Origin: a candidate division FCPU426 bacterium
Lineage (GTDB): Bacteria > Oederibacteriota > PGYV01 > Palsa-1178
Direction: 5' to 3'
DNA length: 64,000 bases
Assembly (NCBI GenBank): GCA_963840035.1
Contig: CAWIXE010000001.1
Span: 672,001 to 736,000, forward strand
Shown: positions 15,708 to 59,452 of the stretch, in pieces
Layout: each line of letters begins with the position of its first letter
Position numbering within the stretch: the stretch's first letter is position 1
Translations under genes and position numbers: made by a program
The notes under the pieces: model-generated
The model's input: the letters and a program-made list of their open reading frames with translations, nothing else
Databases searched by the model: none
Told to the model about the DNA's origin: nothing

Positions 15708-15792
15708 GGCGTTTTTTTGGTGCATACAGGAGTGTTTTGTTTTATAATAATCAGGTTAAGGGTGTTGGTTAAAAAATGAAAAACAGATTTTT

Positions 15793-15871
15793 GTAGAGAC
15801 GCAGCTTGCTGCGTCTCAGACGTTGGGTTTAAAACAAGGCAAATGCGAGACACAGCAAGCTGTGTCTCTAC
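15793..15871. repeat. Paired GTAG REPs (REPIN)
   Basis: GTAGagacgcagcttgctgcgtctc ... gagacacagcaagctgtgtctCTAC. Confidence 0.75.
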
Positions 15872-15893
15872 GAATACAAAAAAGGGCGGATTG

Positions 15894-17105: not shown

Positions 17106-17220
17106 TTTTATATTTTAAATTTTAGATTTAAGGTATTCCATGGCACTATTATAATAGAGCCGCGGAGCACCTTAAATCTAAAATCTGCAATCTAAAATAT
17201 AAAATAAACCAGGGAGCATC

Positions 17221-41740: not shown

Positions 41741-41915
41741 TCAGAATGTAAAAAAAGTTTGCTCCCGTTGTTATCAGCATAGAGGCGACAGAATAGACCC
41801 GGAGTCGGTAAACATACAAGCACAACTTCTTGGATATTGACACCAAAGGTCGAATTGGTGTAGAATTAACACGATTTAAGGGGATTTACAATAATTCAAA
41901 TTGTGGGAGGATTTC

Positions 41916-42791
41916 ATGAAAAAAACTATTTTTAATCTTTTATTACTATCCGTAATTGTTTTTATTGCTTCCTGTGGGGATAAAAAAGCAACCGGCCCCG
42001 GCATGGCACCGCCCGAAAATTCAGCGACCGTGACGCAAACTTACACTATCACACTTACAATGACTCCTTACCAGAGTTCTACTATCACGGCGACGAGGAC
42101 GATAACGCTTACCAATACAGACACGCCGACTTATACGGTGACTCCGACTAAGACCGCAACATCAACCTCGACGGTCACCCCTACAAATACCCCGAAAACA
42201 TTTAACCTCATACCGGGAAACAACTTAGGCTGCGCTGATGCTGATATCTTAAATTTATCGCCCACAAATAATACCGGAAGCTGCGGCGGCATAAGCATAT
42301 ACGCGGATCCTTCATCAGGCTATACAAAAAGGATCCTGTTGCGTTACGGAGTGGCTTCGGCTTTTATTACTCCGACAGTTGTGGCTGTAAACTTGAAGAT
42401 GAAGTTAAACGCATATGCCAACAGGAATGGCAATATAAACGTCCACAAGATGAATGCCCCATGGGTTGAAGGAAAATTTTGCGATGCTTCTTCCACTACA
42501 ACTGTAAGCTGGAGCGGGAGCGGGACTTCGGCGTGGACAACCGCGGGCGGAGACTATGATTCGGGCATTCAGGCTTCATTTCCATTTGATTCATATACGG
42601 GGACGGACAGCGTTATCAGGATACCCCTGCCGATATCCGTTTTTCAGGGATGGCTTGCAAACGACGCGACAAATTACGGGCTACTTTTAAAGCTGGCAAA
42701 CGAAAACCCGGCAGATTCCACAGGTATTTCATTTTACGCGGCGGGTGTAGGGTCTTCGAATAATCCAACGCTTGAGGTTTTATACTATTGA
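41916..42791 (+). CDS. Lipoprotein with Thr linker and DNRLRE-like domain
   Basis: IASC lipobox, T-x tract, W.EG..W..AGGDY, GWL...NYGLLLK, PTLEV. Confidence 0.75.
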   Translation: MKKTIFNLLLLSVIVFIASCGDKKATGPGMAPPENSATVTQTYTITLTMTPYQSSTITATRTITLTNTDTPTYTVTPTKTATSTSTVTPTNTPKTFNLIPGNNLGCADADILNLSPTNNTGSCGGISIYADPSSGYTKRILLRYGVASAFITPTVVAVNLKMKLNAYANRNGNINVHKMNAPWVEGKFCDASSTTTVSWSGSGTSAWTTAGGDYDSGIQASFPFDSYTGTDSVIRIPLPISVFQGWLANDATNYGLLLKLANENPADSTGISFYAAGVGSSNNPTLEVLYY

Positions 42792-42799
42792 TATGATGT

Positions 42800-42826
42800 G
42801 AAGGCAGGCCGTAAAGCCTGCCTTCA
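42800..42826 (+). terminator. Hairpin/terminator between the two lipoprotein genes
   Basis: gaaggcaggc-cgtaaa-gcctgccttc. Confidence 0.5.
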
Positions 42827-42928
42827 TCCGGTTTTTGGGGAAGCTAAAATAATAACGGGGCCGCATGCGTCCGTGAAATCCTTCACGGATTCCTTTTCAT
42901 TTCCGGAAAAATTTATTGGGAGGTTTCC

Positions 42929-44440
42929 ATGAAAAAAATTAGTGTGTGCGGGTGTATTCTTATTTTAGCCCTGTTTATATTTTCCTGCGGGAAAAAATCA
43001 ACGCCTTCGGGCCCGTCCGGGACACCGGGGCAGGCGGAGACTATGACTGTAACCGCGACGCTGACATCGACAGCGCAGCCCACGGGCACGGCCACGGCAA
43101 CGAGAACCGCCACACAGTCAGCCACCACGGAAAACAGCGCTACGCTTACCGCCACGAAAACCCACACCCAGGCCATGTCATCAACCGCGACACCGACGGC
43201 CACTACGACGCCTGTATTCACGATAAAAGTATCGGCCACATACAAATTTGATGATTTATTTTGCGCGGTGCCGGTGCGCAGCATCGACTGCGTAATACTC
43301 AACAATTGGGGCACCGAGGTATTTATCGCAAGTTCAATCATGGTGGACAATCTTTCAGACCCGGCGCCTGCATCGCAAATGCCGGCAACAACCGTTTATG
43401 ACGGGGGATGTTCCTGTTTTAAGATCACTGACTATGGCGGGCATACGGGCATGATACTCATGCCGCCGGAAGGCTGCAACGACAGCCGCATACTGGCTTT
43501 TGCGCCGGGTGATATATTAAGGTTTACTGTAACCATAGCAGGCACAGATACAGTCCTCGAACAGGAAGTGCCGGATATGTCCAGGACAGCCGGCGGGCAT
43601 ACCATACTTATGCCTTCTTCAGGATTTGATTACAGCGTATGTGATACATTTTATGGCTCAGCCTGTGATTCGGGCATAACCCCGCATACTTATACGGTAA
43701 ATCCTTCAAGGCCTTCGTGCACAGATAAAATTAGCGCGTATTTAAATAAAACAACATTCGCGTACGGCGCGGAAATATATACGGAATCTGAAATGTACTA
43801 CAGCATAGCCACGGCTACATCGACTTCTACAGCCACGGCCACGGTGACTCCGACAAACACACCCCAGACAGCCTCGTTTCAGCAGGGCGCGAATCTGTAT
43901 ACGGGGTGCGCGGACGCGTCGCTTCTGAGCTCCTCCCCGACTTTTAACAACGGTTCATGCACAATGATATCCATCGGAAAAAGTGGCACAAGCCTCTCAA
44001 GGGGAGTAATAAAATTCGTACTTACGTCGCTTTCGGGCGCGCAGGTGCAGTCAGCGCTGCTGACGTTTAAACTGAACACAATAATATCCGGCAGCGGAGA
44101 TGTGGAAGCATTCAGGCTGGCGAGGGCTTTTACAGAGGGGAACAAGTGCAATGCGGCAGGGGTAAATGAAGCGTGCTGGACAAAAGCATCAGCCACATCC
44201 TGGACAAATCCCGGCGGTGACTATACGGTGAGCATGGGAAGCGGAAGTTTCAGCGTGGGTTCCACATATCTTACGATGAGCCTCGACCCGGCGGTGGTGC
44301 AGGCATGGATAAACAACTCAGCTGTTAATTATGGGATGCTGCTTAAGACAAAGGAAACAGCGGACGCGGCCGCGCCGGTTTTTACCCAGGATAACGCGAC
44401 CCAGTCAAACAGGCCCGAGCTGGAGATAATATACTACTGA
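42929..44440 (+). CDS. Lipoprotein with Thr linkers, Cys-rich middle domain and C-terminal DNRLRE-like domain
   Basis: IFSC lipobox; GCADA, WTNPGGDY, VQAWI..NYGMLLK, RPELEIIYY (paralogous to upstream gene). Confidence 0.75.
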   Translation: MKKISVCGCILILALFIFSCGKKSTPSGPSGTPGQAETMTVTATLTSTAQPTGTATATRTATQSATTENSATLTATKTHTQAMSSTATPTATTTPVFTIKVSATYKFDDLFCAVPVRSIDCVILNNWGTEVFIASSIMVDNLSDPAPASQMPATTVYDGGCSCFKITDYGGHTGMILMPPEGCNDSRILAFAPGDILRFTVTIAGTDTVLEQEVPDMSRTAGGHTILMPSSGFDYSVCDTFYGSACDSGITPHTYTVNPSRPSCTDKISAYLNKTTFAYGAEIYTESEMYYSIATATSTSTATATVTPTNTPQTASFQQGANLYTGCADASLLSSSPTFNNGSCTMISIGKSGTSLSRGVIKFVLTSLSGAQVQSALLTFKLNTIISGSGDVEAFRLARAFTEGNKCNAAGVNEACWTKASATSWTNPGGDYTVSMGSGSFSVGSTYLTMSLDPAVVQAWINNSAVNYGMLLKTKETADAAAPVFTQDNATQSNRPELEIIYY

Positions 44441-45246: not shown

Positions 45247-45439
45247 TATATGGCTTAAGTGCGAGGTTGAGCTTGCGGCACGTGCAAGCGGCGGTTCTGC
45301 AAAATCATGAAAGGCCCGGAGTTGATATTTAATAACCTGGCAAATCCGGGAAAATTGAAAGAACTGGCAAATGATATCCCGATGGTGTATAATAAAAAAT
45401 AATTACATTATCGCAGAAAGCCACTTTACGGGGTCATAT

Positions 45440-47287
45440 ATGAAAACAACGACAGGCAGCCGGGGTTTCTTTTTAAAGAGCGTCTTTGTCCTGCTTTATA
45501 CCGCTGCCATAGCCTGCGCCTGTGAGGCGGCCACGACTGCGACATTTACGCCGACAGGCACGGCCACCTTCACTAACACTCCCACCCGAACCGCCATTGT
45601 CTCTTCGATATGGCGGGTAAATGCGGGCGGGCCACTGTATCCGGACAGCTGGGGCAACACCTGGGCCGCGGATACTAATTTTAACAACGGCACCGGACAC
45701 TGTGTGACGATGACTGTTGCAAATACCATTGACAGCGTGCTTTACCAGTGTGAAAGATACGGCAGTCCCTTCACGTACGGTTTTAATGTCCCCGCGGGAA
45801 ATTATCAGGTCACGCTGAAATTCGCGGATTTATTCTGGGAAGCCGCGGGGGAGAGGGTATTTGACGTGTTCATAAACGGCGCGCTGGTGCTGGATAATTT
45901 TGACATTATATCGGATTCCGGGTCCGCTTTTACGGCAGTCAGCAAAGTGTTCAACAACATTGCGCCCGTAAGCGGGGCCATAGCATTACAGTTCGGGCCT
46001 GCGTCAGTTGATAACGCGCAGGTGTGCGCGATACAGATAAATCCCATGCCGCCCGCGCCGACACCGACTAAGACGCCGTGCCTGCCTACCACTATTAACC
46101 CATATATCCGGGTGAATGAAGGAATCTGGTCGCAGAGCAGCAGCGTAACCGTGTTCATGGGCACCGCCGTGAACCTTGGGCCGCAGCCTTTAACCGGCGG
46201 AACGTGGAAATGGACCGGCCCGGCCGGGTTTGTTGCCAATTCGCGGGAAATCAGCAATATTCCGCTGACATACGGCGTCAACACGTATACGGTAGTGCAC
46301 ACTAATTCCTGCGGCGGCCAAAACTCCGTGACTTTTACGGTTACGGTTCTGGTGCCTGTCATAACTGAGGCGGTCGGCGGCTGTGCCGCGGCAATAACCA
46401 CGGACGGAGTCATGAACGAAAGCGAGTGGGATTCAGCGGCATGGAATTCAATATCCAAAATCTGCGAAGGCACCAATCCCGGTAACGTATCAGGAAATTT
46501 CAAGCTTTTGTGGGACACAAAGAACCTATACGCGGGTATTGCCATAAACGACGCTTACCTGAACGCGACACAGGTGGCCTGCGCGAATTATAATGATTCT
46601 GCCGTTGAAATGTACCTTGATATGGCCAATGACCATGGCGCGCAGAGTTACCCGGGCTCTGTGGGAGATTTTCATTTCATGATCAGTTATGACTGCCTGC
46701 AGTTTTGCTTAAACGCCGCGGTGGCCATGGCTCCTTCCGGCATGAAGTACGCCAGCACGCATGATGCCGGCGGGTATGTTATGGAAGTGAAAATTCCCTG
46801 GGTGCTTTTGGGGGTTGTGCCCGCCGTAGGAGATACATATCAGTTTGATTTGCAGGTGGATTTCAACAACGGGACCAGCGAGCGCGTGGGACAGCTTGTC
46901 TGGAACGGCGACGCCAATAACTGGAAAAGTTCGGCTAATTTTGGAAATGTGCGGCTGGGCTATTGCCCGGGCCCGCCCCTCAAAGAATCATTCCATGTTT
47001 TCCCAAACCCCGTCAACCCAAAACAGTCGCAGGCGCGTTTCAATTACAACATTGAAAATGAGTCGGAAATATCCATAGAGATCTTCACCATAAGCGGCAG
47101 CCGCGTAAAAACCGTGCTGAATAAAGTTATAAAACCCGCCGGCCAGCATAATGAGGACGCATGGGACTCGAAAAATGAGTCGGGCAAGGAAGTGCTCTCG
47201 GGCGTTTACTTATGCGTTCTGGAGGTAAAAGACAGGGTCACTGGCGGGACAACAAGGCTCGTAAAGAAGATGGCGGTACTCAGGTGA
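45440..47287 (+). CDS. Secreted carbohydrate-binding protein: malectin + Ig-like + CBM9-like + FlgD/T9SS-like CTD
   Basis: RVNAGG..D..GNTWAAD, YQCERYG, LKFAD..GERVFDV (malectin); DG.MNESEW, LLWD..LY, DSAVE.YLD, YVMEVKIPW (CBM9); VFPNP..WD.KNESG..SGVY. Confidence 0.85.
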   Translation: MKTTTGSRGFFLKSVFVLLYTAAIACACEAATTATFTPTGTATFTNTPTRTAIVSSIWRVNAGGPLYPDSWGNTWAADTNFNNGTGHCVTMTVANTIDSVLYQCERYGSPFTYGFNVPAGNYQVTLKFADLFWEAAGERVFDVFINGALVLDNFDIISDSGSAFTAVSKVFNNIAPVSGAIALQFGPASVDNAQVCAIQINPMPPAPTPTKTPCLPTTINPYIRVNEGIWSQSSSVTVFMGTAVNLGPQPLTGGTWKWTGPAGFVANSREISNIPLTYGVNTYTVVHTNSCGGQNSVTFTVTVLVPVITEAVGGCAAAITTDGVMNESEWDSAAWNSISKICEGTNPGNVSGNFKLLWDTKNLYAGIAINDAYLNATQVACANYNDSAVEMYLDMANDHGAQSYPGSVGDFHFMISYDCLQFCLNAAVAMAPSGMKYASTHDAGGYVMEVKIPWVLLGVVPAVGDTYQFDLQVDFNNGTSERVGQLVWNGDANNWKSSANFGNVRLGYCPGPPLKESFHVFPNPVNPKQSQARFNYNIENESEISIEIFTISGSRVKTVLNKVIKPAGQHNEDAWDSKNESGKEVLSGVYLCVLEVKDRVTGGTTRLVKKMAVLR

Positions 47288-48831
47288 GGAAAGAAAAAGC
47301 CTCAGCAGTGAGGCTGTATTTATTCATGCTGTTTTTGCTTTCTTCGGCGGCATTTGCGGCGCCGGGGGATTATGGCACGGAAAATGTATTCATGATCGGA
47401 GCCGGGTCCAGGCCGGATGGCATGGCCGGCGCTTTTACGGCCGTGGCTGATGATCTCTCCGCGATACACTTTAACCCCGCAGGTATGGTAAACATAAAAA
47501 AACAGGAAGTATCCCTTCTATATTATCCGCTCTATGAAGGCGCCTCAATCGGCTCGGCCGCGTACGGGCAGTCCATCCTGAATTTTGGCACGATCGGAGC
47601 CGCTTTTTCCGTGTTTTCCTCGGGCAATATGGAGGGTTATGATGAGGCGGGGGAGCTTACATCTGTTTTCAGCAGCCAGCAGTATAAACTGACGGCCTCA
47701 TACGGGCGTTATCTGGCAGAAGGCCTTTCTGCCGGGGCAAATATCAATATATACTACTCCAATATGTCCAGGTTCAATTACGCGGGATTTGGCGCCGATC
47801 TGGGAGTCCTGTACAAACCTTTTTCTTTTTTTTCCGCGGGATTGATGGCCGGAAATATCATTACGCCGGCTTTTTCCATGCAGTCGGTTACAGAGGCGCT
47901 TGGCCGCAAATACACTCTCGGGCTTCTGGCAAGGCATCAGATCGCGGATTTTGAATTCAAGGCCGCTTTTGACGCTTCTGCCGGCGAAAAGGAAAACTTT
48001 AAAGCAAGGGCCGGCATGGAAGTCAGATGGGCCGGCATAGCGGCTGTGAGGGGCGGTTACAGCGAAGGCGAATTCACTTTCGGGGCGGGGCTGTCGCTAT
48101 ATGACGCGAAATTTGATTACGCGTACATAGCCAACAGGAATTTCGGAAGGATGGACAGGTTCGCGGTTTCATACGCGTTCGGAATGACCATAGATCAGCA
48201 GCGGGCGCAGTGGCGCAGGGCCATATATAATGAAGTGCGCAGGATCGTCGACGCCAGGATCAGGATAAAGATAAAGGAAGAGGCGGAAGCGCACTACAGC
48301 CGGGCATACGGGTATTATCAAAACGGCGAATACGAAGAAGCGCTTGCCGCGGTGGAGAAGTCCCTGGAGTGGAAGCGCGACCATGAACCTTCTATCATGA
48401 TGAAGAATATAATTGAGGAGAAACTTAAGGAAAAGCTCAGTTCAGGAGCAGGCATATCCGGGATAAAGGACGCGTATGTCATAGCCGGCATTGAATTTTA
48501 CGAACAAATGCAGTATGATGAGGCCTTAAAACAGTGGGAACTGGCGTTAAAGGGCAGGCCCGGAAATAAAGCCATTCAATCGCTTATTTTGAAGGCAAGG
48601 AAAGCCATGGCAACAGTTCCCAAAAGCAGTCAAGTGCCGAAGGAACAAAAGGAACTGGCGGACAGGATGTACTATATAGCGGTAAACAGCTATACTTCAG
48701 GCGACCTGAAAGGCGCTATAGAGATGTGGAAAAAAGTCCTTGCAATAGACCCGGAAGACGTCAAAACGCTCAGGGACTTAAGGAAAGCTCAGGCGGAACT
48801 TGAAGAACTCTCCAGGCGGGGAATCGAATGA
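47284..48831 (+). CDS. PorV/PorQ-like beta-barrel with C-terminal TPR repeats
   Basis: GAGSRPDGMAGAFTAVADDLSAIHFNPAG, GADLG, FDYAY; TPRs; GTG start overlaps upstream TGA. Confidence 0.8.
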   Translation: MRKEKASAVRLYLFMLFLLSSAAFAAPGDYGTENVFMIGAGSRPDGMAGAFTAVADDLSAIHFNPAGMVNIKKQEVSLLYYPLYEGASIGSAAYGQSILNFGTIGAAFSVFSSGNMEGYDEAGELTSVFSSQQYKLTASYGRYLAEGLSAGANINIYYSNMSRFNYAGFGADLGVLYKPFSFFSAGLMAGNIITPAFSMQSVTEALGRKYTLGLLARHQIADFEFKAAFDASAGEKENFKARAGMEVRWAGIAAVRGGYSEGEFTFGAGLSLYDAKFDYAYIANRNFGRMDRFAVSYAFGMTIDQQRAQWRRAIYNEVRRIVDARIRIKIKEEAEAHYSRAYGYYQNGEYEEALAAVEKSLEWKRDHEPSIMMKNIIEEKLKEKLSSGAGISGIKDAYVIAGIEFYEQMQYDEALKQWELALKGRPGNKAIQSLILKARKAMATVPKSSQVPKEQKELADRMYYIAVNSYTSGDLKGAIEMWKKVLAIDPEDVKTLRDLRKAQAELEELSRRGIE

Positions 48832-50318
48832 AGAAAAAATATTCAGGAATAAGGCTTGAAATAATGGCGGTTATTTTGTCCCTTACCCTGGCTGTTACAG
48901 CCATCATGAGCTTTATGGTGCTTAACATCCAGAAAAAAAGCCTCACAAACGAGATGGAACTCAGGGGCTTAAGCATGACGAGGAACATAGCGAACAATAT
49001 CTCGGATTTTATGCTCATGAAATACGAACTCGAGGCCGCAAAAATATTGAAAGAGGCGATGCAGAACAAGGGCGTTAAGTACGCTATGGTTGTCGGCCCA
49101 AGCGGCGTAATCCTCGCGCACAACGACATGACGCTGGTAAAAACCGCTTATGCGCCTCCGGGCAGGCTGCTTTATACCACGCCGGGGAAAAACAGCGTTT
49201 ATGTAACTGCGTCCGGCGAAAAAGTGATAGAGTTTACCTCGGCAGTGGTCGCCAAGCGCAAGGCAAAAATAGGCGTTGTACACGCGGGCATATCTTATGA
49301 TCTCATAACAAACGCGCTCAAGAGGACATACTTTGACATAATACTTGTGGCCGTTGTTGCCGTACTTTTAAGTTTGCTTGGCGCTTTCCTGCTGAGCGCC
49401 GCGTTCACAAAACCGATCCACGCGCTTGCCGAAGGCGCGAGGATAGCGGGAATGGGTGATTTAAACCATAAGATCAGCATAAAAAGCAGGAATGAACTCG
49501 GATTGCTGGCGGAGGCTTTCAACAGCATGACCGAGGGTCTGCAAAAAGCGCAGAAAGCCGAGATAGAAAGGCTGGCGCTGGAAAAAGAGCTTGAGATAGC
49601 GTGGAAGATTCAGGACTCCCTGCTGCCAAAGTCATTTCCTGAGATGAAGAAATATGAAGTCGCCGCGTTTTACAAGCCGGCAAAGGAAATCGGCGGGGAT
49701 TACTATGACGTGATACCGCTCTCCGGCAACAGGTTCGGGATGGTGATGGCTGACGTATCGGGTAAAGGAATACCCGCGGCGCTGATTATGACCATGCTCA
49801 GCGGCATATTAAATATGGAAGCAAGGGCGAATCAGGATCCTGTAACCGTGCTGACAAAATTAAACGAAGGCCTGCTCGCAAAAGTCGGGGGCGGCATGTT
49901 CGCGACGATTTTTTACGCTGTGCTTGATACTGTAAGTAATACGATAGAGATGGTTTCCGCAGGACACCATGAAATACTTGTATACAGGCAAGCGGCGGCT
50001 AAGGTCGAATCATACTGCCCCAAAGGCGCTGCCATAGGGATTTTAAACGGCAAAGAGTTTGGGTCAAGGCTGGAAAAGATAACGCTGAAGGCTGAACCGG
50101 GCGATAAATTTTTGCTTTTTACAGACGGCATAAGCGAAGCCAGGGCGGACGGCGGAGGCAGGTTTGGCATGGACAGGGCCGCGCAGTCCCTGCAAAAAAA
50201 CGGCGGCTTGGCGTGCAAGGCGGTGCTCGACGGGCTGCTCGGGGAAGTTGAGAAATTCACAGGCGGCCAGGAACAAAGCGACGATATCGCGGTCCTTTCT
50301 ATAGGAAGAAACGCTTGA
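48828..50318 (+). CDS. Membrane sensor PP2C/SpoIIE phosphatase with HAMP domain (RsbU-like)
   Basis: 2 TM + periplasmic domain, HAMP (NELGLLAEAFN.M), IGGDYYD, ADVSGKG, FTDGISE, QSDD. Confidence 0.92.
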   Translation: MKKKYSGIRLEIMAVILSLTLAVTAIMSFMVLNIQKKSLTNEMELRGLSMTRNIANNISDFMLMKYELEAAKILKEAMQNKGVKYAMVVGPSGVILAHNDMTLVKTAYAPPGRLLYTTPGKNSVYVTASGEKVIEFTSAVVAKRKAKIGVVHAGISYDLITNALKRTYFDIILVAVVAVLLSLLGAFLLSAAFTKPIHALAEGARIAGMGDLNHKISIKSRNELGLLAEAFNSMTEGLQKAQKAEIERLALEKELEIAWKIQDSLLPKSFPEMKKYEVAAFYKPAKEIGGDYYDVIPLSGNRFGMVMADVSGKGIPAALIMTMLSGILNMEARANQDPVTVLTKLNEGLLAKVGGGMFATIFYAVLDTVSNTIEMVSAGHHEILVYRQAAAKVESYCPKGAAIGILNGKEFGSRLEKITLKAEPGDKFLLFTDGISEARADGGGRFGMDRAAQSLQKNGGLACKAVLDGLLGEVEKFTGGQEQSDDIAVLSIGRNA

Positions 50319-50331
50319 GCGGAGGTGGACA

Positions 50332-50685
50332 ATGGCATTTGAGATCAGGGAAAATGAAGACGGTGAAATAATCATAGTGGCGCTTTTCGGCGAGCTGGAT
50401 TCCTCGTCGGTTGCGGCTTTTAGCCTGGGGTTTAAGGATATTATTGGCAAGCGAGGCCCTAAGAAATATGTCCTGGATTTAAAAGGGCTTGAATTCATAA
50501 GCTCCGCCGGCTGGACCGCGTTTTTGAACGAATTCAAGCAGCTCCGGGCGTCAGGCGGGGATTTGAAGCTTGCCGCCATGCAGCAGGACGCGAAAAGAGT
50601 CTATTCGCTTGTGGGCATAGACGGGGTGATAGAAAGTCACGAAACCGTGAAAGAGGCTGTGAAGAGTTATGCCGGGAAAAACTGA
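50332..50685 (+). CDS. STAS anti-sigma-factor antagonist (RsbV-like)
   Basis: GELD, DLKGLEFISSAG with phosphorylatable Ser. Confidence 0.9.
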   Translation: MAFEIRENEDGEIIIVALFGELDSSSVAAFSLGFKDIIGKRGPKKYVLDLKGLEFISSAGWTAFLNEFKQLRASGGDLKLAAMQQDAKRVYSLVGIDGVIESHETVKEAVKSYAGKN

Positions 50686-51115
50686 AATAATAAGCGCGGA
50701 AATCAAAGTGGACGCGGCAGAGGGCAATCTCAGCCTGATAAGGAAATTCATCGGCGGCAACATGAAAAGCACGGGCTTCCCGGGGAAAAAAATATCGGCG
50801 CTGGCAGTGTCGGTAACAGAGCACTGCGAAAACCTGATTAAGCACGCTTACGCCAAAAAAACCGGTAAAGTCGCGCTGAAGCTGGCGCTTAAATACCCGG
50901 AGGCAAAAATAACGGCATGGGATTCCGGGCCGCGGTTTAACATGAAGGAACAAAAGATACCTGATACCTCCCGGAGAATAAAAAAAGGCCTCGGCGGGAA
51001 AATGGGGATTAAGACAATACTGGCATTATGCGACGCGGTCGAATACAAAAGAATAAACGGCCGCAATGAAAATACTTTCATAGTCCGGGCGAAAAGCCTA
51101 AGAAAAGGAAAATAA
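50669..51115 (+). CDS. Anti-sigma regulatory Ser kinase (RsbW-like HATPase)
   Basis: E.CENLIKHAY, DSGPRFN, GGKMG, D.VEY. Confidence 0.85.
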   Translation: MPGKTEIISAEIKVDAAEGNLSLIRKFIGGNMKSTGFPGKKISALAVSVTEHCENLIKHAYAKKTGKVALKLALKYPEAKITAWDSGPRFNMKEQKIPDTSRRIKKGLGGKMGIKTILALCDAVEYKRINGRNENTFIVRAKSLRKGK

Positions 51116-51118
51116 TAA

Positions 51119-52135
51119 ATGGCAACGATAAAGGACGTGGCAAAGATAGCGGGGGTCTCCTATAATACCGTTTCTTTTGTGGTCAACGGAGTGGATAAGG
51201 TCGCGCCCGCGACAAGGGAAAAGGTCCTGAAGGCAATAGAAAAACTGCATTACAAGCCAAACAAGACCGCGAGGGCCTTAGTAGGCGGTAAAGCGGACTC
51301 CATAGCCTTCATAAGCACCAGGTTCACCTCTGTATTCGGCATGAACATATTAAGGGAAATCGAAGACGGCGTTCACTTAGCCGGGCTTTCATCCAACTAT
51401 GACCTCATACCGTACTCAACAAGGGGCGAAGAGGAATTCAAGGAACAGATAATAGACTCCATAATACGCAACAGAAAAGCGGACGCCATAATCATGCTGG
51501 GCATAAAACCCGGCCCGGAAAACATGTCGGAACTCAAAAAGAACGGCATACCGGTGGTCGTCATAGACGGAACAATATCCGGCGGACACAGCGTAAAGTG
51601 CGACAATGAAAAAGGCGCTTACCTTGCGACAGATTACCTTATAAAATCCGGCAGGAAAAAAATTGCGTACTTAGGCATGTCCAAAACAGGCGGAGAAACA
51701 TGGCCGTCGATAATAGAAAGGGAGCAGGGCTATAAAAAAGCGCTCACTGAAAAAAACATCGGCATAAATGACCGCCTGATTGTCACAGTAAACAACAACT
51801 ACATAAACGAAGGCAGGGCCGTCATGCATACGCTGCTGAAGGCAAACAAGGACATAGACGCAGTCTTCTGCGGAGCCGGCGACAGCACGGCCATCGGAGT
51901 TGTGAACGCAATAAAGGAAGCGGGACTTAGCGTCCCAAAAGACATAGCCGTAATAGGCTACGACGACATCCCGGTAGCGTCAGCCATAACGCCGTCGCTG
52001 ACTACAGTAAGGCAACCCGTGGAAAAAATGGGCAATGAAGCTTTTTTAATGGCGCTTGAAGCCATGCAGGGAAGGCTGAAAGAGCCAAAGAACCTGGTAT
52101 TTGAGCCGGAGTTGATTGTAAGGGAATCGGCGTAA
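51119..52135 (+). CDS. LacI-family transcriptional regulator
   Basis: TIKDVAKIAGVS..TVS, YKPN..AR.L, IAVIGYDD, PSLTTVRQP. Confidence 0.95.
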   Translation: MATIKDVAKIAGVSYNTVSFVVNGVDKVAPATREKVLKAIEKLHYKPNKTARALVGGKADSIAFISTRFTSVFGMNILREIEDGVHLAGLSSNYDLIPYSTRGEEEFKEQIIDSIIRNRKADAIIMLGIKPGPENMSELKKNGIPVVVIDGTISGGHSVKCDNEKGAYLATDYLIKSGRKKIAYLGMSKTGGETWPSIIEREQGYKKALTEKNIGINDRLIVTVNNNYINEGRAVMHTLLKANKDIDAVFCGAGDSTAIGVVNAIKEAGLSVPKDIAVIGYDDIPVASAITPSLTTVRQPVEKMGNEAFLMALEAMQGRLKEPKNLVFEPELIVRESA

Positions 52136-52219
52136 GTGGGGAAAGGGAATTCGACAAGACAATCTTACATCGGCAATGAAATAAGGTAATTAACCCGGGG
52201 TCTGATTTGGTTTTGTTTA

Positions 52220-52250
52220 TTGACAAACAGTATACAAGATGTATACTTTA
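52220..52250 (+). promoter_or_regulatory. Promoter overlapped by operator AGTATACA-aga-TGTATACT (copy 2)
   Basis: TTGACA-N16-TATACT; palindrome 52229-52247. Confidence 0.7.
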
Positions 52251-52307
52251 TTTGATTCTTATGAGGGAATCAAATAACCCGTGCAAGGCGGGACAATAGG
52301 GGAAAAT

Positions 52308-53126
52308 ATGGATAGTCTACCGGTTGTTTTTGAGAATTTTGAGATACGCAGGGTTTATGATGAAAAGAAAGAGGTTTGGTTTTTTTCTGTAGTTGATATT
52401 GTGGGGGCGCTTATACAGCAGAAGGATTTTCAGGCGGCGAGGAAGTATTGGAATAAGCTTAAGGAAAGACTGGTAAAGGAAGGAAATCAGTCGGTGACAA
52501 ATTGTCACCAACTGAAAATGGAAGCGGCAGACGGAAAAAAGTACCTTACAGATGTGGCGGATCCGGAGGTCCTGCTTCGCCTCATCCAGTCCGTCCCGAG
52601 CCCCAAGGCTGAGCCAATAAAACTATGGCTTGCCAAGGTCGGTTACGAAAGGATGCAGGAACTGGCTGACCCGGAGCGTTCCTTAAACCGCGCCAGGGAA
52701 AACTGGCAAAGGCACGGCAGAAGTGAAAAGTGGATACAGCAGAGGATGATGAGCCAGGAAACCAGGAACAAACTCACCGACTACTGGAAAGACAACGAAA
52801 TAACACAAAAAGAAGAATACGCCATACTGACAAACATAATACACAAAGAATGGTCCGGACTGGATGTAAAAACCCATAAAATCCTGAAAGGCCTAAAAAG
52901 CCAAAACCTGCGGGACCATATGAGCGAGGCGGAGCTCATTTTTACTGCGTTAGCCGAACTCTCCACAAGGCAGATAGCACAGGCAGAGAAAGCAAAGGGC
53001 TTAAAGCATAACAGCCGCACCGGAAAAAAAGGCGGGAAGATAGCGGGTAAGGCAAGAAAAGAGCTGGAGAAAAAAACCGGCAGAAGTATTATAACGGGAG
53101 ACAACTTTCTTCCTCCAAAGAAGTAA
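52308..53126 (+). CDS. Bro-N domain (phage antirepressor-like) protein
   Basis: FENFEIRRV..WFFSVVDIV, RKYWNKLKERL, DGK..LTDVAD, LIQSVPSPKAEP.KLWLA, KSQNLRDHM. Confidence 0.88.
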   Translation: MDSLPVVFENFEIRRVYDEKKEVWFFSVVDIVGALIQQKDFQAARKYWNKLKERLVKEGNQSVTNCHQLKMEAADGKKYLTDVADPEVLLRLIQSVPSPKAEPIKLWLAKVGYERMQELADPERSLNRARENWQRHGRSEKWIQQRMMSQETRNKLTDYWKDNEITQKEEYAILTNIIHKEWSGLDVKTHKILKGLKSQNLRDHMSEAELIFTALAELSTRQIAQAEKAKGLKHNSRTGKKGGKIAGKARKELEKKTGRSIITGDNFLPPKK

Positions 53127-53135
53127 GATAAAGGT

Positions 53136-53400
53136 TTGGTACTGGTACGCTATTGCGTGAAGAAAAATGCGGGGCTTGTTATACACCGTGAAATCGGCAA
53201 CAGCATGGAATGGTCGTTAAATGAGGACGGCTACGCTTATAAAACGCTTGGGCCATTGTATGAGACTCTTTTTAGGGCTCCGGCGCCGCTTGAGAAGATA
53301 AAGGAAGTCATCAAAGAGAACCTGCCAAAAAACATGGTCCTGGAGGCGAAGTTATTCGGTTCCATGGCTAGGGGCGATTACGGCGGAAGCAGTAACGTCT
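53136..53400 (+). pseudogene. Fragment of a nucleotidyltransferase-domain gene, ending near a REP
   Basis: LFGSMARGD motif without an intact start or C-terminus; REP at 53425-53448. Confidence 0.55.
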
Positions 53401-53562
53401 GTGGCGGTCTTAATGGCTGGGGCTGGGCGATTCGTGAATCGCCCCTACAAATGAATGAATCATGGACATAAATACTGTTTTCTGAGACGTTAATTCATTA
53501 AAATATAACACCTTTATTTTAAGGGCTTTTATGGAATTAAGCCTTATTTTATAAAAATATCC

Positions 53563-53673
53563 TTGACAATCAGACTTAAATCGGGTAAATTTGTATTGAA
53601 GATATGAACGTTCATATAAATCAATTTACTTAGGAAAAGTATATTTAAAGCGCAAGAATATGAACGTTCATAT
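53563..53673 (+). promoter_or_regulatory. Promoter with two perfect LacI-type operators ATATGAACGTTCATAT
   Basis: TTGACA-N17-TAAATT (53563-53591); 16-bp palindromes at 53602-53617 and 53658-53673. Confidence 0.8.
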
Positions 53674-53742: not shown

Positions 53743-56241
53743 ATGAAAAAAATCTTTTTGTTCCTGATCGTGCTTTTGTCTTTTGTTGTTCCTGTCTTAA
53801 ACGCGGCGACCTGTACGGTTGACGCGAATGCCACGTACCAGTACATACGCGGCATAGGAGCTTCCAGCGCCTGGTATGGTTTGGCCGGCGCGAGCGCTGC
53901 ATCGCTTTTTGCGGATGACAACGTCAACGGCCACATCGGAATGTCCATGTTGAGGGCCAGGATAGATCCAAACGGAAGCCACGCAGCTGAAGTCAATAAC
54001 CTGGTCGCTGCCAAGGCCGCCAATCCCAACCTTCTTTTATGGGCCACAGAGTGGTCGCCGCCAGCGCAGTACAAGGCTAATAATAATGTAAACGGGCCGG
54101 CAACCAACAATACCTTCCTTGGCGCCTCATCCGGCGCGCCTAACAGCGCGGATACGGGTTATGCCAATTACCTGGTCTCATATATACAGTACGCGAAAAG
54201 CCGCGGCATAGACCTTTACGCCATTTCAGTCCAGAACGAACCAAACTGGAACCCGGACTATGAAGCCTGCCTTTGGACAGCGGGGCAGTTTGAAGTTTTT
54301 GCGCGCGCGTTTAAAAGCGCGCTCACAACCGCCGGGCTTACGACCAAGATCATGATACCTGAGCCGATTAATCCGGGGGGATTAAACCTGGCTTCCGCAT
54401 CCATGAACAACGCGACAACAGCCTCCTATATTAATATAATCGGAACGCACCTTTATGGCGGGATGCCCAACGCCCTTAATACTTACGGCTTCACACAGCT
54501 GACAAACCAGGAATTCTGGGAGACAGAGATATCAGCCAATACGACCGATATAGCGGGCGCATTGCAGCAGGCGGGCTGGGTACAGACGTGCCTGGTGAAC
54601 GCAAGCATGAACGCTTTCCACTACTGGTGGATACAGGATATGGCCACCAACGGCAACCTGAACATAAAGGCTTTTGCCCTGGGCAATTACAGCAAGTTCA
54701 TAAGGCCGGGATATTACCGCATGGGAGCGACAGCCGCCCCGACATCCGGCGTGCAGGTCAGCGCATTTAAGAACACCAATAATTCCACGCCGTCAAAGAT
54801 TGTCTTTGTGGCGATTAACAACAACTCTTCGGCAACCAGCCAGACATTCAGCTTAAACGGCCTCAACGTAACATCGGTTACGCCGTGGCGTACAGACGCC
54901 AGCACAAACCTGGTGGCACAGGCCGCGGTAAGCGTTTCAGGAAACAGTTTTACTTACAGCCTTCCGGCAAGAAGCATAGTTTCCTTTGTGGGAACAAACG
55001 GCACCACCGGGCCTACAGCCACAAACACGGCAATAGTCCCTACATCAACATCCACACCGTGTGCGGCAACAGCTATCGTGCCTTATCTTCAGGCTGACGC
55101 AGGCGCATGGCAGCAGGTTGCCAGCGTTACTGTAGCTTCCACCACCTCCGCTGTTAACCTCGGGCCTCAGCCGGCAACCGGCGGTTCCTGGAGCTGGACC
55201 GGGCCTAACGGTTTCACATCAACTTCGCGTGAACTTCTCGGTATTGCGTTAAGCGCCGGGAATAACGTATTCACGGCAACATATACGAACGCGTGCGGGG
55301 CCAAGTCCACGCAGGCTTTCACTATTATAGTATCAGGTTCGGCCACATCAACGGCCACGGCTGTTGTGACGCCGGTAAACACGCCGATAACGAACTTACT
55401 TGGCGGCAATCCGCTCATGTACCAGAAATACACCGCTGACCCGACAGCCTGCTGGTTCAACGGCAGGATGTATATTTACACTTCGCATGATAAAACAGGC
55501 GCGACAGGTTACGATATATCCGATGTAACCGTCATGTCATCAGATGACCTTGTTAACTGGACCGACGAAGGCGAAGCGGTCAAGGCGTCAGACACATCAT
55601 GGGCGGGGCTGACTTACGCGCCGACGAGCGTTTACAGAAACGGATATTACTATGTATATTTCGGCAACGGCGGAGGCAGCATAGGCGTGGTCAGGGGCAC
55701 GAGCCCGACAGGCCCGTTCACAGACCCTGTAGGACACGCGATTGTAACCGGCTCCACGCCGGGCTGCAGCGGCATGACATACGTATTTGACCCCGCTGTA
55801 TTTGTTGACGACGACGGACAGGCTTACATGTATTTCGGAGGAGGCGGGCCGGGCAACGCAAGGGTTATAAAGCTCAACGCCGACATGATAAGCGTCAATG
55901 GTTCTGCCGTGACGATAGACGCCCCAAGGTATTTTGAGGCTCCATTCATGAATAAGAGAAACGGGATATATTATTACTCGTACTCGACTGATTTCTCGGC
56001 GTCACCGGCTGCGACAATTGACTACATGACTAGCAGCAACCCGATGACAGGCTTTGCATACAAAGGAACCATACTCGGGAATCCATCGGATAACTGCGGC
56101 AACAACAACCATGCTTCGATTGTGAACATAGGGACCGACTGGTACATAGCTTACCATACCAGGAGGCTTCTCAAACATAAACCTCGGCAACTGCAACGGC
56201 ATATACCAGAGGAGCGTGGCTTTAGACAGGCTCTACTTTAA
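53743..56241 (+). CDS. GH30 xylanase-like + Ig-like + GH43 (N-terminal part of a frameshifted gene)
   Basis: Signal peptide; WSPP, SVQNEP, FWETE, NYSKFIRPG (GH30); YTADP, YAP, FDPAVFVDDDG, YFEAP, NNHASIV (GH43). Confidence 0.85.
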   Translation: MKKIFLFLIVLLSFVVPVLNAATCTVDANATYQYIRGIGASSAWYGLAGASAASLFADDNVNGHIGMSMLRARIDPNGSHAAEVNNLVAAKAANPNLLLWATEWSPPAQYKANNNVNGPATNNTFLGASSGAPNSADTGYANYLVSYIQYAKSRGIDLYAISVQNEPNWNPDYEACLWTAGQFEVFARAFKSALTTAGLTTKIMIPEPINPGGLNLASASMNNATTASYINIIGTHLYGGMPNALNTYGFTQLTNQEFWETEISANTTDIAGALQQAGWVQTCLVNASMNAFHYWWIQDMATNGNLNIKAFALGNYSKFIRPGYYRMGATAAPTSGVQVSAFKNTNNSTPSKIVFVAINNNSSATSQTFSLNGLNVTSVTPWRTDASTNLVAQAAVSVSGNSFTYSLPARSIVSFVGTNGTTGPTATNTAIVPTSTSTPCAATAIVPYLQADAGAWQQVASVTVASTTSAVNLGPQPATGGSWSWTGPNGFTSTSRELLGIALSAGNNVFTATYTNACGAKSTQAFTIIVSGSATSTATAVVTPVNTPITNLLGGNPLMYQKYTADPTACWFNGRMYIYTSHDKTGATGYDISDVTVMSSDDLVNWTDEGEAVKASDTSWAGLTYAPTSVYRNGYYYVYFGNGGGSIGVVRGTSPTGPFTDPVGHAIVTGSTPGCSGMTYVFDPAVFVDDDGQAYMYFGGGGPGNARVIKLNADMISVNGSAVTIDAPRYFEAPFMNKRNGIYYYSYSTDFSASPAATIDYMTSSNPMTGFAYKGTILGNPSDNCGNNNHASIVNIGTDWYIAYHTRRLLKHKPRQLQRHIPEERGFRQALL

Positions 56242-59200
56242 CGCTGACGGCACCATACAGAAAGTGGTAACGACAACAACAGGCGTAAACGCGCTGAAAA
56301 CCGTGAACCCGTATACCACATTAAAAGCGGTTATGATGGCAAAAGAATCAGGGATAACCACTGAAATATGCACAGAAGGCGGGCTGAATGTAGCGAACAT
56401 TGAGAATAATGACTCGATACAGGTCAAGAACCTCGAGTTCGGCACCGGCGCTACAGGATTTAACGCACGCGTGGCGAGCGCGACCAGCGGCGGAAACATA
56501 GTGATACACCTTGACAGCGCGACAGGGCCGGTCATCGGCACGTGCGCTGTGACAGGCACCGGCGGATGGCAGACATGGCAGACCAAGTCGTGCGCGATAT
56601 CCGGCGCGACAGGAAGACACGATGTATACTTTGTGTTTACCGGCGGGTCAGGATTCCTGTTCAATTTCGCGTCCTACAGCTTTACACAGGGAAGCGTAAC
56701 AGCGACACCTGTAGTAACAAATACAAACACACCGGTTCCTCCTACAGCGACTCCGACAACACCGGTGGCCACAAGCACGCCGGTTGTACCTACAGCTACT
56801 CCGACAACACCGGTTATCACGGGCGGATTAAGGGACTTAGCCGCAGCCAAAGGGCTGCTGCTCGGCTCAGAGGCTACGAACAGCCCGCTGCAGAATGAAG
56901 CCATATACAGGACCACGCTTGCCAAGGAATTCAACTGGATGGGCGGGGAGAATGAGTTCAAGGCTTATCTTTGGAACGGGCCTTACTCCTATAATTTTGG
57001 GACCACTGATTATTACAAGAATTTCAGGGATGCTAATAATATGCAGATGAGGGGACATGTCCTGGTTTATAACGCGGTTGTGCCAAGCTGGATGAGCAGC
57101 GGCAGCTATACAAACACCCAGATTGGCGACATGCTCAAGGCATACGTGCTGGCCATGGCCGGCAGGTACAGCGGCAAGATGAATGAATGGGATGTTGTAA
57201 ACGAGGCAGTCTCAGACGGCGCGCCGTATGGGTATAAGTCCAACGACTTCTGGTACCAGAAGCTTGGCGATTACATCCCGCAGGCGTTCCAGTGGGCAAG
57301 GCAGGCAGACCCGAACGCGAAGCTTGTCTACAATGATTACGGCAACGAAGGCTTAAACGCAAAGTCAAACTATATATACACCATGGTCAGCAATATGAAA
57401 AACCAGAACATTCCGATCGACGGTGTGGGATGGCAGTGCCACGTAAGCAGCAGCTGGCGCTTAAACGACGACATATGGGAAAACGCGCAGAGGCTCAGCG
57501 CGCTTGGCCTGCAGATATCGGTTACCGAACTCGATGTAGCCATACCGGTCCCTGTTGACGCGGCAAAACTGCAGTCGCAGGCAAAGGCGTATGCCGACAT
57601 GGCTTTCCTTTGCATGACGCATCCGAGCATAAAGAGGATGTTCCTGTGGGGATTCACGGACAAGTATTCGTGGATACCCGGCTTTACGAACGGGGCATCG
57701 GACGCGGCCCTGATATATGACGCGAATTACGCCAAAAAACCGGCGTATTACGCGATAGAGTCGGTCTTAAAGCTGCAGCCTGTGGACGGCATTTACAATG
57801 GCGGCTTTGAAAGCTCCATTTACTGCTGGAATGAAAGCTCGGGCGGCACCATAGCGGAAGAGACCAGCGTGGTACACAGCGGCACAAAATCAGCCAGGGT
57901 TGAGAACAGGACACAGGCATACCAGGGCATAGGCCAGTATGTGCTGCCTTATCTTCTGAAGAACGGACAGGGCAACTACAGCGCAGGCGTGTGGGCAAGG
58001 CTCGCCTCCGGCACTGACACGGCAAAGCTGACCCTCTATATAAAGGATGACGCGGGCAGCAAGTATATATCGCTCGGTTCAGCCGCGGTAAACAGCACAC
58101 AGTGGAGCCAGGTAAACGGTTCGGCAAATGTCACATGGACCGGGCTTTTAAGGGTCGCAAGGCTGTTTGTTGAAACATCCACCGGGACATCGAATTTCTA
58201 TGTGGACGACATGAGCTTTGCAACGCAGGGAGTTACAACACCTACAAACACGCCGGTAGTACCGACAGCGACACCTACAACACCGGTGCCGACAAACACG
58301 CCGGTAGTACCGACAGCGACACCTACAACACCTGTGCCGACAAACACGGCCATAGTTCCTACAGCAACACCTACAACACCGGTGCCGACAAATACGGCCA
58401 TAGTTCCGACAGAGACACCGACAACACCTGTACCGACAAACACGGCGATAGTTCCTACAGCTACGCCTATAACACCGGTACCTACAAACACGGCAATAGT
58501 GCCGACAGCGACACCGACAACGCCGGTACCCACAAACACGCCGATAACACCGACGGCAACACCGACAACGCCTGTGCCCACCAGCACACCGATAACACCG
58601 ACACCGACCACACCGGTAACAGCAAATATTTCAATACAGCTTAAAAGCGGAGACACCAACAGTTCTACAAGCAGCCCGCATCCGCAGATAAGGATAATAA
58701 ACACTGGCTCAACAGCGCTTAACATGAATACTGTTGAGGCCCGTTACTGGTTCAGCTATGACGGCGCAGGCCAGTCATTACAGGCTTTTGTTGACTGGGC
58801 CGGCAGGATGCCGCAGGGAGCCGGGGTCAGCGGAAATGTCCAGATTTCGGTCGTCGCTAAAACCCAGGGAACCCAGACACATTACATGAGCATCAAATTC
58901 ACCGGAGGGCTCATGCTGCAGCCTGGGGAATATGTTGAAGTCCAGACAAGGTTCAACAAAAATGACTGGTCATCCATGCTGCAGGCCAATGACTGGAGCT
59001 TCGCATCATACACAGGATTTACAACATGGAGCAGGATAACCGGGTATGTGAACGCGGCAAGAGTATGGGGAGAAGAACCTAACGCGGCAATATCAGGCCA
59101 GGCGGCGCAGGTTTCCAGCGCGATGAGCTATCCGAATCCGTCAACAGGCGGAACGACAAATCTTTCTTACACCATAGCGGGCACGGGCGCGTCATCGCTT

Positions 59201-59452
59201 GATATGAATTACACGATACCTGACCCTGACGCGAAAGTATCGCTGAGGATATATACGGTATCAGACAGGCTGGTGTGGGGAAAGGAAATCAGCGGAGTGC
59301 AGAATGTATCCGCGGGAAAGCATATTGTAAGCTGGGACGGAAAGACGTCCGGCGGCGTTGAACTTGCAGCCGGGACATACACGCTGAATGTAAGGGTAAT
59401 CTCAAACGGAAAGATAAGCAGCAAGGATTTTAAGATAATAATGCTGAAGTAA
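56216..59452 (+). CDS. GH43 tail + CBM6 + GH10 xylanase + CBM4/22-like + PT linker + CBM3-like + CTD (C-terminal part of the frameshifted gene)
   Basis: TGGWQTW..HDVYFVF (CBM6); ENEFK, RGHVLV, WDVVNE, YNDY, GVGWQCH, VTELD, WGFTDKYSW (GH10); YPNP..WDGK; no signal peptide. Confidence 0.85.
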   Translation: MALDRLYFNADGTIQKVVTTTTGVNALKTVNPYTTLKAVMMAKESGITTEICTEGGLNVANIENNDSIQVKNLEFGTGATGFNARVASATSGGNIVIHLDSATGPVIGTCAVTGTGGWQTWQTKSCAISGATGRHDVYFVFTGGSGFLFNFASYSFTQGSVTATPVVTNTNTPVPPTATPTTPVATSTPVVPTATPTTPVITGGLRDLAAAKGLLLGSEATNSPLQNEAIYRTTLAKEFNWMGGENEFKAYLWNGPYSYNFGTTDYYKNFRDANNMQMRGHVLVYNAVVPSWMSSGSYTNTQIGDMLKAYVLAMAGRYSGKMNEWDVVNEAVSDGAPYGYKSNDFWYQKLGDYIPQAFQWARQADPNAKLVYNDYGNEGLNAKSNYIYTMVSNMKNQNIPIDGVGWQCHVSSSWRLNDDIWENAQRLSALGLQISVTELDVAIPVPVDAAKLQSQAKAYADMAFLCMTHPSIKRMFLWGFTDKYSWIPGFTNGASDAALIYDANYAKKPAYYAIESVLKLQPVDGIYNGGFESSIYCWNESSGGTIAEETSVVHSGTKSARVENRTQAYQGIGQYVLPYLLKNGQGNYSAGVWARLASGTDTAKLTLYIKDDAGSKYISLGSAAVNSTQWSQVNGSANVTWTGLLRVARLFVETSTGTSNFYVDDMSFATQGVTTPTNTPVVPTATPTTPVPTNTPVVPTATPTTPVPTNTAIVPTATPTTPVPTNTAIVPTETPTTPVPTNTAIVPTATPITPVPTNTAIVPTATPTTPVPTNTPITPTATPTTPVPTSTPITPTPTTPVTANISIQLKSGDTNSSTSSPHPQIRIINTGSTALNMNTVEARYWFSYDGAGQSLQAFVDWAGRMPQGAGVSGNVQISVVAKTQGTQTHYMSIKFTGGLMLQPGEYVEVQTRFNKNDWSSMLQANDWSFASYTGFTTWSRITGYVNAARVWGEEPNAAISGQAAQVSSAMSYPNPSTGGTTNLSYTIAGTGASSLDMNYTIPDPDAKVSLRIYTVSDRLVWGKEISGVQNVSAGKHIVSWDGKTSGGVELAAGTYTLNVRVISNGKISSKDFKIIMLK

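Follow-up and report, generated by a model that had tools for sequence, protein, structure and literature searches.

Partner switches such as RsbU/RsbV/RsbW and SpoIIE/SpoIIAA/SpoIIAB combine a PP2C phosphatase, a STAS protein, and a GHKL serine kinase (PMC8256260). The same trio, with its motifs kept, is encoded in a six-gene operon of a candidate division FCPU426 bacterium, on a stretch of 64,000 nucleotides (nt) that is referred to here as the window. However, no sigma factor gene is linked to this trio; instead, an outer-membrane barrel and a surface cargo are encoded with it. The six plus-strand open reading frames (ORFs), g1 to g6, occupy positions 45440..52135 and probably constitute a relay that spans the cell envelope. 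The widest form of this reading is tentative, and we place it clearly below even: the operon would exemplify a modular two-membrane signalling class, in which swappable surface antennas sit on dedicated PorV-like barrels, a C-terminal tetratricopeptide repeat (TPR) helix docks a Cache-PP2C phosphatase, and a STAS protein serves plug-in outputs. Here, xylan chain ends outside the cell would lead to STAS-mediated release of LacI at a xylanase promoter, which would make LacI a DNA-binding repressor under STAS control and the system a counterpart of RsgI in diderms. Comparisons with published systems refer to excerpts of the cited papers.

Several described systems share parts of this design. In SiaABCD of Pseudomonas aeruginosa, a phosphatase, a kinase, and a small switch protein, through the phosphorylation state of that protein, control a non-sigma partner that is encoded last (PMC7278518); Sia has neither a barrel nor a surface lectin, whereas the last gene here encodes LacI, with GGDEF proteins in sister cassettes. 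The Chlamydia RsbU/RsbV1/RsbW switch operates without SigB, like g3 to g5, but its target is the primary sigma factor, and the excerpts describe no barrel, TPR tail, or carbohydrate-binding module (CBM) cargo (PMC4552016). At the outer membrane, the 14-strand PorV fold and cargos with a type A-like C-terminal domain (CTD) are shared with the PorV shuttle of the T9SS (type IX secretion system; PMC11611037), and in the PorA-PorY/PorX-SigP pathway the surface protein PorA activates a sensor kinase (PMC4800418). Unlike g2, PorV has no periplasmic TPR tail, and signalling at this locus would use PP2C/STAS proteins rather than a histidine kinase and an extracytoplasmic function (ECF) sigma factor. 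Barrels with 14 strands and a C-terminal periplasmic helical TPR extension, as in g2, are described for TP0548, TP0859, and TP0865 of Treponema pallidum; these FadL-like proteins are proposed nutrient importers, for which the excerpts give no partner or signalling link (PMC8407342). CcpA-HPr-Ser46-P provides a LacI-family protein under a small Ser-phosphorylated protein (PMC3074128); here the partner would be the STAS protein. In RsgI-SigI of cellulolytic clostridia, an extracellular CBM senses polysaccharide and carbohydrate-active enzyme (CAZyme) genes are controlled, but RsgI, as excerpts of that literature present it, is a single membrane protein with proteolytic sigma release in a monoderm envelope. 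No Pfam or NCBIfam match to a CBM anti-sigma factor of this type was obtained on g1 to g6, and no sigma gene is linked. In the TonB-dependent FecA/FecR/FecI relay, the periplasmic extension of an outer-membrane barrel contacts an inner-membrane regulator. By comparison, the barrel here is PorV/FadL-like, its TPR extension is C-terminal rather than N-terminal, and a phosphatase switch takes the place of the anti-sigma/ECF pair; no ECF gene was found in 60 loci that hold a TPR gene and a phosphatase.

To our knowledge, diderms respond to non-importable polymers through TonB receptors and ECF sigma factors or through periplasmic sensing of released sugars. A description of the present arrangement was not found in searches of the open-access literature, as judged from titles and abstract starts, and the excerpts of a Goldbacteria paper (PMC7031533) contain nothing on it. 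The whole relay is therefore likely undescribed as a class, a novelty that depends on the putative contact between the TPR tail and the Cache domain; its cytoplasmic half, taken by itself, is a variant of a kind already known.

The operon is compact. A sigma-70-type promoter-like site (45364..45393, + strand) matches the consensus at 10 of 12 positions, and a TGTATAAT-like -10 box, judged by eye, precedes most g1 orthologues. The genes are g1 (45440..47287), a predicted exported lectin with a signal peptide, malectin, Ig-like, and CBM9 domains, and a T9SS-type CTD; g2 (47284..48831, GTG start), a PorV-like 14-strand barrel with a helix and TPR tail; g3 (48828..50318), a phosphatase with two transmembrane segments and sCache, HAMP, and PP2C (SpoIIE) domains; g4 (50332..50685), a STAS protein; g5 (50669..51115), an RsbW-like serine kinase; and g6 (51119..52135), a LacI-family repressor that is the final operon gene and the candidate output. 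Their junctions are, in order, GTGA, ATGA, a 13-nt gap, a 17-nt overlap, and a 3-nt gap. An earlier, sequence-only reading had listed the same six genes and five junctions, which all match the ORF coordinates, and its domain calls are matched by Pfam and NCBIfam profiles, neither of which places a catalytic family in g1.

Conservation was followed in 24 genomes of the class, including the organism's own (G000; 3.46 Mb, 98% complete, diderm, BamA over cut-off). Phosphatase orthologues (at least 62% identity) occur in 15 of the 24, namely the own genome and 14 of the 23 others. LacI orthologues (at least 68%) occur in 14, the G006 contig ending before LacI, and GH30 orthologues of the downstream xylanase (at least 70%) also in 14, although not in G007. 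The exact 12-base core of the operator described below is present in 13 of the 24; the G007 match falls within a gene, and pairs with one mismatch are found in G014 and G018. Neither the three orthologues nor the operator core was found in the other nine genomes (61-99% complete). Of 14 relatives, 11 have all six genes in order on a single contig, and in three the order is split over contig ends but consistent; because it is kept in 14 related loci, the grouping does not reflect chance. The sequence-only reading proposed to check the order across genomes and its linkage to CAZyme genes: 14 of 14 loci show the order wherever the assembly reaches, and the first large gene past LacI is the GH30 xylanase in 10 of 13, the others being a PL11 lyase (G001), a GH26 gene (G008), and an RHS fragment (G007).

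The arrangement extends beyond the class. A genome scan by phosphatase motifs was followed in the best 80 of 599 loci. A CTD cargo and a tail-bearing barrel lie upstream in six of these 80, all among the top 17; one is in-class, and the others are labelled Ignavibacteria, Calditrichia (two), Zixibacteria, and unclassified. Many of the remaining loci are short contigs. The core conserved in these labelled classes and phyla consists of the CTD cargo, the PorV-like barrel with TPR tail, the Cache-HAMP-PP2C phosphatase, and the STAS protein. In metagenomes (59 loci), the phosphatase lies beside 10 of 14 tail-bearing barrels, five of the 10 duplicating genomes already counted. Within the own genome, six of 38 PorV-like genes bear the tail, and five of those six are in phosphatase clusters. 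Its paralogous cassettes comprise L001, with the order CTD cargo, barrel, phosphatase, STAS, and LacI and no kinase; L002 to L004, two with cargos of 2.7 kaa (thousand amino acids), one ending in methyl-accepting chemotaxis protein (MCP) and PilZ genes; and L006, a barrel with a kinase-phosphatase fusion. It is very improbable that unrelated modules, namely a cargo/barrel pair, a stress partner switch, and a sugar regulator, adjoin here by genomic accident. CTD-PorV pairs are indeed common (17 PorV-like genes of the own genome directly follow a CTD gene), and LacI genes are many, but the operon has overlapping start and stop codons, and nearly all SpoIIE and RsbW genes (five of six and six of six, respectively, in the own genome) are concentrated in such clusters. 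The same order across classes and phylum labels largely refutes this explanation.

The barrel gene provides the link between the two membranes. g2 belongs to the PorV/PorQ family NF033709 (106 bits, cut-off 90) and contains TPRs; its 36.6 bits against the PorV equivalog NF033710 (cut-off 250) and its 210-residue helical tail indicate that it is not a canonical T9SS PorV. In the AlphaFold2 model (pLDDT 84.8), a 14-strand barrel at amino acids (aa) 74-299 is followed by a 44-residue helix and TPR pairs, the tail spanning aa 303-511, and the best Foldseek matches are the PorV chains 8GL6_F and 6H3I_F, with FadL next. Public names of g2 relatives are just 'TPR protein' or 'PorV/PorQ family protein'. 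The C-terminus past the last strand of a PorV-like barrel faces the periplasm, and from the model the TPR tail of g2 is predicted to be periplasmic. The C-terminal extension of the Treponema FadL-like proteins is likewise assigned to the periplasm (PMC8407342).

The sequence-only reading had the TPRs meet the periplasmic domain of the phosphatase. In a single complex prediction of the g2 tail with the g3 Cache dimer (29-row alignments), the score was 0.60 versus 0.28 for the best control, contacts agreed by at least 69% between runs, and partner pLDDT was at least 81. The mark used was reached by 116 of 157 solved pairs and by two of 215 mismatched pairs. Since 18 solved pairs and both mismatches lie at 0.60 or under, the pass is weak, and no interface was returned; the modelling thus weakly suggests that the g2 tail touches the g3 Cache domain. 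A correlation of tail and Cache distances (rho 0.72, 29 rows) was set aside as kinship. Further evidence came from 20 high-scoring loci of other classes that were selected on Cache likeness alone. In nine, which form one orthologous group, a barrel-less secreted TPR protein is encoded directly upstream, and these proteins share a C-terminal signature with g2 (AEMELKEMEKRGI versus AQAELEELSRRGI). As the signature is kept in the barrel-less partners, the terminal TPR and helix travel with the Cache domain even without the barrel. Of the remaining loci, one has a short TPR gene directly upstream, and in three a tail-bearing barrel is encoded no more than a few kb away. The relay is therefore supported by the gene order across classes and phylum labels, the barrel-plus-tail model, the signature in barrel-less partners, and the weak tail-Cache pass. 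L231 to L239, from two families of other classes, have a conserved operon of a barrel-less periplasmic TPR protein, Cache-PP2C, STAS, (STAS-)kinase, and GAF-GGDEF genes.

Other observations weigh against the relay. Seven of the 20 Cache-selected loci have no upstream TPR gene, and tail-bearing barrels also occur without the phosphatase (one of six in the own genome, four of 14 metagenome loci, L074, and L076). The barrel-less form shows that wiring of the phosphatase does not require a surface cargo. In addition, the compared genomes are kin, so conservation counts are not independent.

The surface end of the relay would be formed by g1, in which malectin (aa 57-172) and CBM9_1 (aa 322-506) precede a T9SS type A sorting domain (TIGR04183, 23.7 bits, cut-off 23). 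The CBM9 domain can be aligned with TmCBM9-2 and CkCBM9.3. Its aromatic clamp, Y384 and W495, occupies the positions of W71 and W175 of TmCBM9-2 and matches Tyr89 and Trp191 of CkCBM9.3, with which the domain also shares the His; further site residues are E390, H412, Q472, and R482. Among the g1-type sequences that cover these positions, the clamp Tyr is kept in 13 of 13 and the Trp in 14 of 15. CkCBM9.3 is binding-competent and takes oligosaccharide ends (PMC8280721). Docking of the g1 CTD on the g2 barrel is suggested by analogy, since PorV binds CTD cargos in Bacteroidota and acts as their secretion shuttle (PMC11611037), and by co-variation: CTD and barrel likeness correlate over 17 pairs (rho 0.40, p 0.005), a relation that falls to rho 0.22 (p 0.09) once the tail-bearing pairs are left out. 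The four CTDs nearest to that of g1, among 61 in the own genome, all belong to cargos encoded directly before tail-bearing barrels. As to export, a 2177-aa frame of the own genome matches SprA/Sov (TIGR04189) in four pieces (best E 5e-21, under the cut-off); GldM and GldN were not found there by a search that covered these two and was silent in the control genomes too. The AlphaFold2 model of g1 was poor (pLDDT 52.9, 11-row alignment), so its Foldseek matches were left unused.

Glycan binding by g1 may be the signal that passes through the barrel. The cargos are built alike, with a variable tip, a repeat stalk, and a CTD, and the tips are swapped on the common stalk and CTD: CBM9 in G010 (on a stalk, with xylan-type partners), CBM35 in G008, and, in the own second cassette, a domain that has 81% identity with the N-terminal end of a secreted CBM3 protein (a PDB search with this last cargo gave no match). 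Glycan-type tips go with LacI-ending cassettes, and CBM9 is the sole domain common to all xylan-type cargos. These patterns argue against a fairly unlikely alternative, in which a small molecule in the periplasm, or the occupancy and export state of the barrel, would be what the Cache domain senses, and the lectin would be an adhesin or tether that sends no glycan signal through the barrel. Cache domains usually bind small ligands, as this alternative would have it; most paralogous cargos are long repeat stalks without a recognised CBM; and the nine barrel-less loci pair the same phosphatase with a TPR protein. The role of PorV as a secretion shuttle in Bacteroidota (PMC11611037) points in the same direction.

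In the cytoplasm, g3, g4, and g5 appear to form a partner switch with intact catalytic and phospho-acceptor motifs. Profile matches place sCache_3_2, HAMP, and SpoIIE domains in g3, with hydrophobic segments at aa 14-32 and 171-189, STAS in g4, and HATPase_c_2 in g5; the metal-site motifs of g3, the serine loop of g4, and the N-box, G1, and G2 boxes of g5 are kept in orthologues. Ser58 of g4 is the likely phospho-acceptor, from its likeness to SpoIIAA. A periplasmic Cache domain is also present in the membrane phosphatase of the Chlamydia Rsb system. g3 scores 81.4 bits against the SiaA family NF038263 (cut-off 700), and a PDB sequence search gave no credible relative of its Cache profile.

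Variants of these parts were seen elsewhere. A degenerate RsbW-like protein without the N-box Asn is encoded between barrel and phosphatase in the long-cargo, MCP/PilZ-ending cassettes (L002, 18354-18839, and orthologues). L077, L079, and L081 encode kinase-Cache-HAMP-PP2C fusions with a C-terminal HTH, L077 having three STAS domains. The same Cache type occurs on paired genes for an HD-GYP protein and an adenylate/guanylate cyclase (L168, L246, and L247), and such a pair lies downstream of a tail-bearing barrel in two genomes. The L078 locus runs on from Cache-PP2C, STAS, and kinase genes into Flp pilus genes, for CpaB and a secretin, and a PorV-like gene. In G008, the phosphatase gene has a frame break (L048).

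In the proposed mechanism, the CBM9/malectin protein would be exported and its CTD captured by its own PorV-like barrel at the surface. Glycan bound by CBM9 would cause a change that is passed down the TPR tail to the Cache-HAMP region of g3, and the phosphatase would then set STAS phosphorylation against the g5 kinase. Unphosphorylated STAS protein would bind LacI and lift repression of the xylanase promoter, possibly together with a sugar inducer. The polarity of this last step follows the analogy with SiaC-SiaD (PMC7278518) and SypA (PMC8256260). The STAS protein is favoured over the kinase as the LacI contact because a kinase gene is missing from the second type of cassette that carries LacI. 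The envelope relay and the non-sigma output of the sequence-only reading are thus retained, whereas its kinase-LacI contact is disfavoured. We hold the entire chain, from glycan to LacI release at the xylanase promoter, to be possible at slightly less than an even chance.

In 13 of 13 assembled relatives, LacI is the gene right after the kinase; where the gap was resolved, in nine loci (two of them metagenome copies), it measures 0-24 nt. The predicted target is a secreted multidomain xylanase on the + strand (53743-59452), whose 5' part (53743..56241) encodes GH30-Ig-GH43 and whose 3' part (56216..59452) encodes CBM6-GH10-CBM22-CBM3-CTD. A frame change near 56168 splits this gene, which is a single ORF of 1960-2100 aa in relatives, and the window xylanase is also about 330 residues shorter than theirs, a malectin domain being among the residues lost. 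Its sigma-70-type promoter (53563..53591, + strand) keeps TTGACA in 13 of 13 relatives. Operator 1 (53602..53617, + strand), a perfect 16-bp palindrome of LacI type with a central CG, lies 10 nt past the -10 box, and the identical operator 2 (53658..53673, + strand) 56 nt downstream. This tandem palindrome precedes the GH30 xylanase in all 14 cases (the window and each of the 13 relatives examined), 51-64 nt apart in the relatives. In a scan of the own genome, only these two sites score in the training range. Their co-occurrence with the repressor suggests that g6 binds the xylanase palindromes. The sequence-only reading had set the operon just upstream of xylan and xyloglucan hydrolases; the xylanase is indeed near, but it starts about 1.6 kb past LacI, with a Bro-N gene between, and the GH74 xyloglucanase is present but probably belongs to another regulon. 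As to autoregulation, four of 13 loci have an operator-like site upstream of g1, at positions that do not align; the window has no such site. Exact 12-mer matches in G007, and one in G006, were discounted because they fall within genes. The best other intergenic operator-like site of the own genome (G000:C2:410502; 15.7 bits, training minimum 21) is upstream of an ECF sigma gene and is probably due to chance.

Given the relay, the genomic evidence makes LacI its output with a likelihood a little better than even; overall, LacI as output falls somewhat under even. Some of the evidence on g6 points away from this role. The sugar pocket is largely intact (F73, D150, N163, D255, and D282, with R201 in 12 of 15), its positions taken in part from an alignment to 5YSZ; in favour of the role, three of 15 orthologues have Lys in place of Arg201, whereas 92 of 92 other LacIs have Arg there. 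The own genome has about 20 LacI genes, many near CAZymes, so that co-location of LacI and xylanase comes cheaply. In G007, the cassette and LacI are kept, yet no GH30 orthologue or intergenic operator was found. Finally, basic residues of CcpA helix IX bind the phosphoserine of phospho-HPr, and the aligned positions of g6 are L310 and E314; a CcpA-like phosphoserine site in g6 was therefore rejected. The conservation of LacI regions 76-104 and 291-320 (0.89 and 0.85) was not counted, as one control group was nearly equal (0.82 and 0.83).

Such features would fit a real relay that carries an ordinary sugar-induced LacI on the same transcript and acts elsewhere, on cyclic di-GMP or chemotaxis proteins or on a sigma factor in trans. 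On balance we consider this somewhat unlikely. The slot after STAS or kinase holds a GGDEF gene in nine of nine barrel-less loci, L079, and L093, MerR-GGDEF in L073, MCP/PilZ genes in the long-cargo type, LacI in two cassette types, and unrelated genes in several other loci, so GGDEF or MCP/PilZ genes do close other copies. In three loci, however, STAS is followed by a LacI of a second lineage (AU p 0.033 against a single clade, in a tree whose groups were named from gene context), so that two LacI lineages entered the slot. LacI also keeps company with the kinase and not with its predicted target: in G001 and G008, LacI remains beside the kinase, and the operator remains with the xylanase elsewhere. 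Moreover, no transporter or catabolic gene of the own genome was found to carry the operator. Sigma factors in trans have precedents, as Chlamydia RsbW binds the primary sigma (PMC4552016) and HsbR controls RpoS (PMC6482189), and the own genome encodes RpoD, a 358-aa RpoS-like paralogue, and a FliA-like protein, besides ECFs at other loci. Six kinase paralogues acting on one housekeeping sigma factor would, however, leave no glycan specificity.

The non-sigma output proposed by the sequence-only reading agrees with several searches. The window contains no sigma gene, as that reading had stated, and no sigma-70 region-2 match. No SigB/F/G in the own genome exceeds its cut-off (best TIGR02980, 132 bits, cut-off 234), and six sigma queries from this genome found no sigma-like ORF in the 60 loci, which vary in length and included no positive control. 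A broken FliA/WhiG-like sigma gene was seen at a contig end in L001 (G000:C3:1-20000), where GC is 0.68-0.73 against 0.48-0.54 beyond; this is likely foreign DNA or a chimeric join. Among the LacI genes, the approximately 20 paralogues of the own genome share a Gly-Asp motif, a lineage-wide pocket variant, in place of the Asn-Asp that is usual in LacI repressors. In G010, the LacI gene has a frame break (L052).

If the proposed relay is correct, diderms would have an added route for polymer sensing, PorV-like barrels outside Bacteroidota would gain a signalling role beyond secretion, and a partner switch would gain a defined non-sigma target. The non-sigma target of SypA- and BtrV-type systems is an open question in the excerpts of PMC8256260. 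The glycan/LacI/xylanase version is the cassette copy with the most directly testable input and output: with its candidate ligand-binding domain, its docking pair, and its 16-bp operator, every step is open to tests on purified proteins, although the organism seems to be known just from genomes. Swappable tips and outputs could also serve as biomass biosensors.

Several other features of the window lie around the operon. The spacer between LacI and xylanase (52135-53560) is an insertion hot spot, occupied here by the Bro-N gene and in relatives by YhcG, AAA_14/DUF4143, AAA_22, or RHS genes. Past the xylanase, a second LacI gene (59699-60742) and the GH74 gene (from 61094) have a common upstream motif, at 59588 and 60951; as this motif differs from the xylanase operator, the GH74 xyloglucanase is probably part of a separate xyloglucan regulon. 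Upstream of the operon (41901-44440) is a tandem pair of predicted lipoproteins that have Thr/Pro-rich linkers and DNRLRE domains. A further PorV-like gene (15843-17105, in the region 13029-17910) lies between genes for an 892-aa unknown and a CTD-bearing protein.

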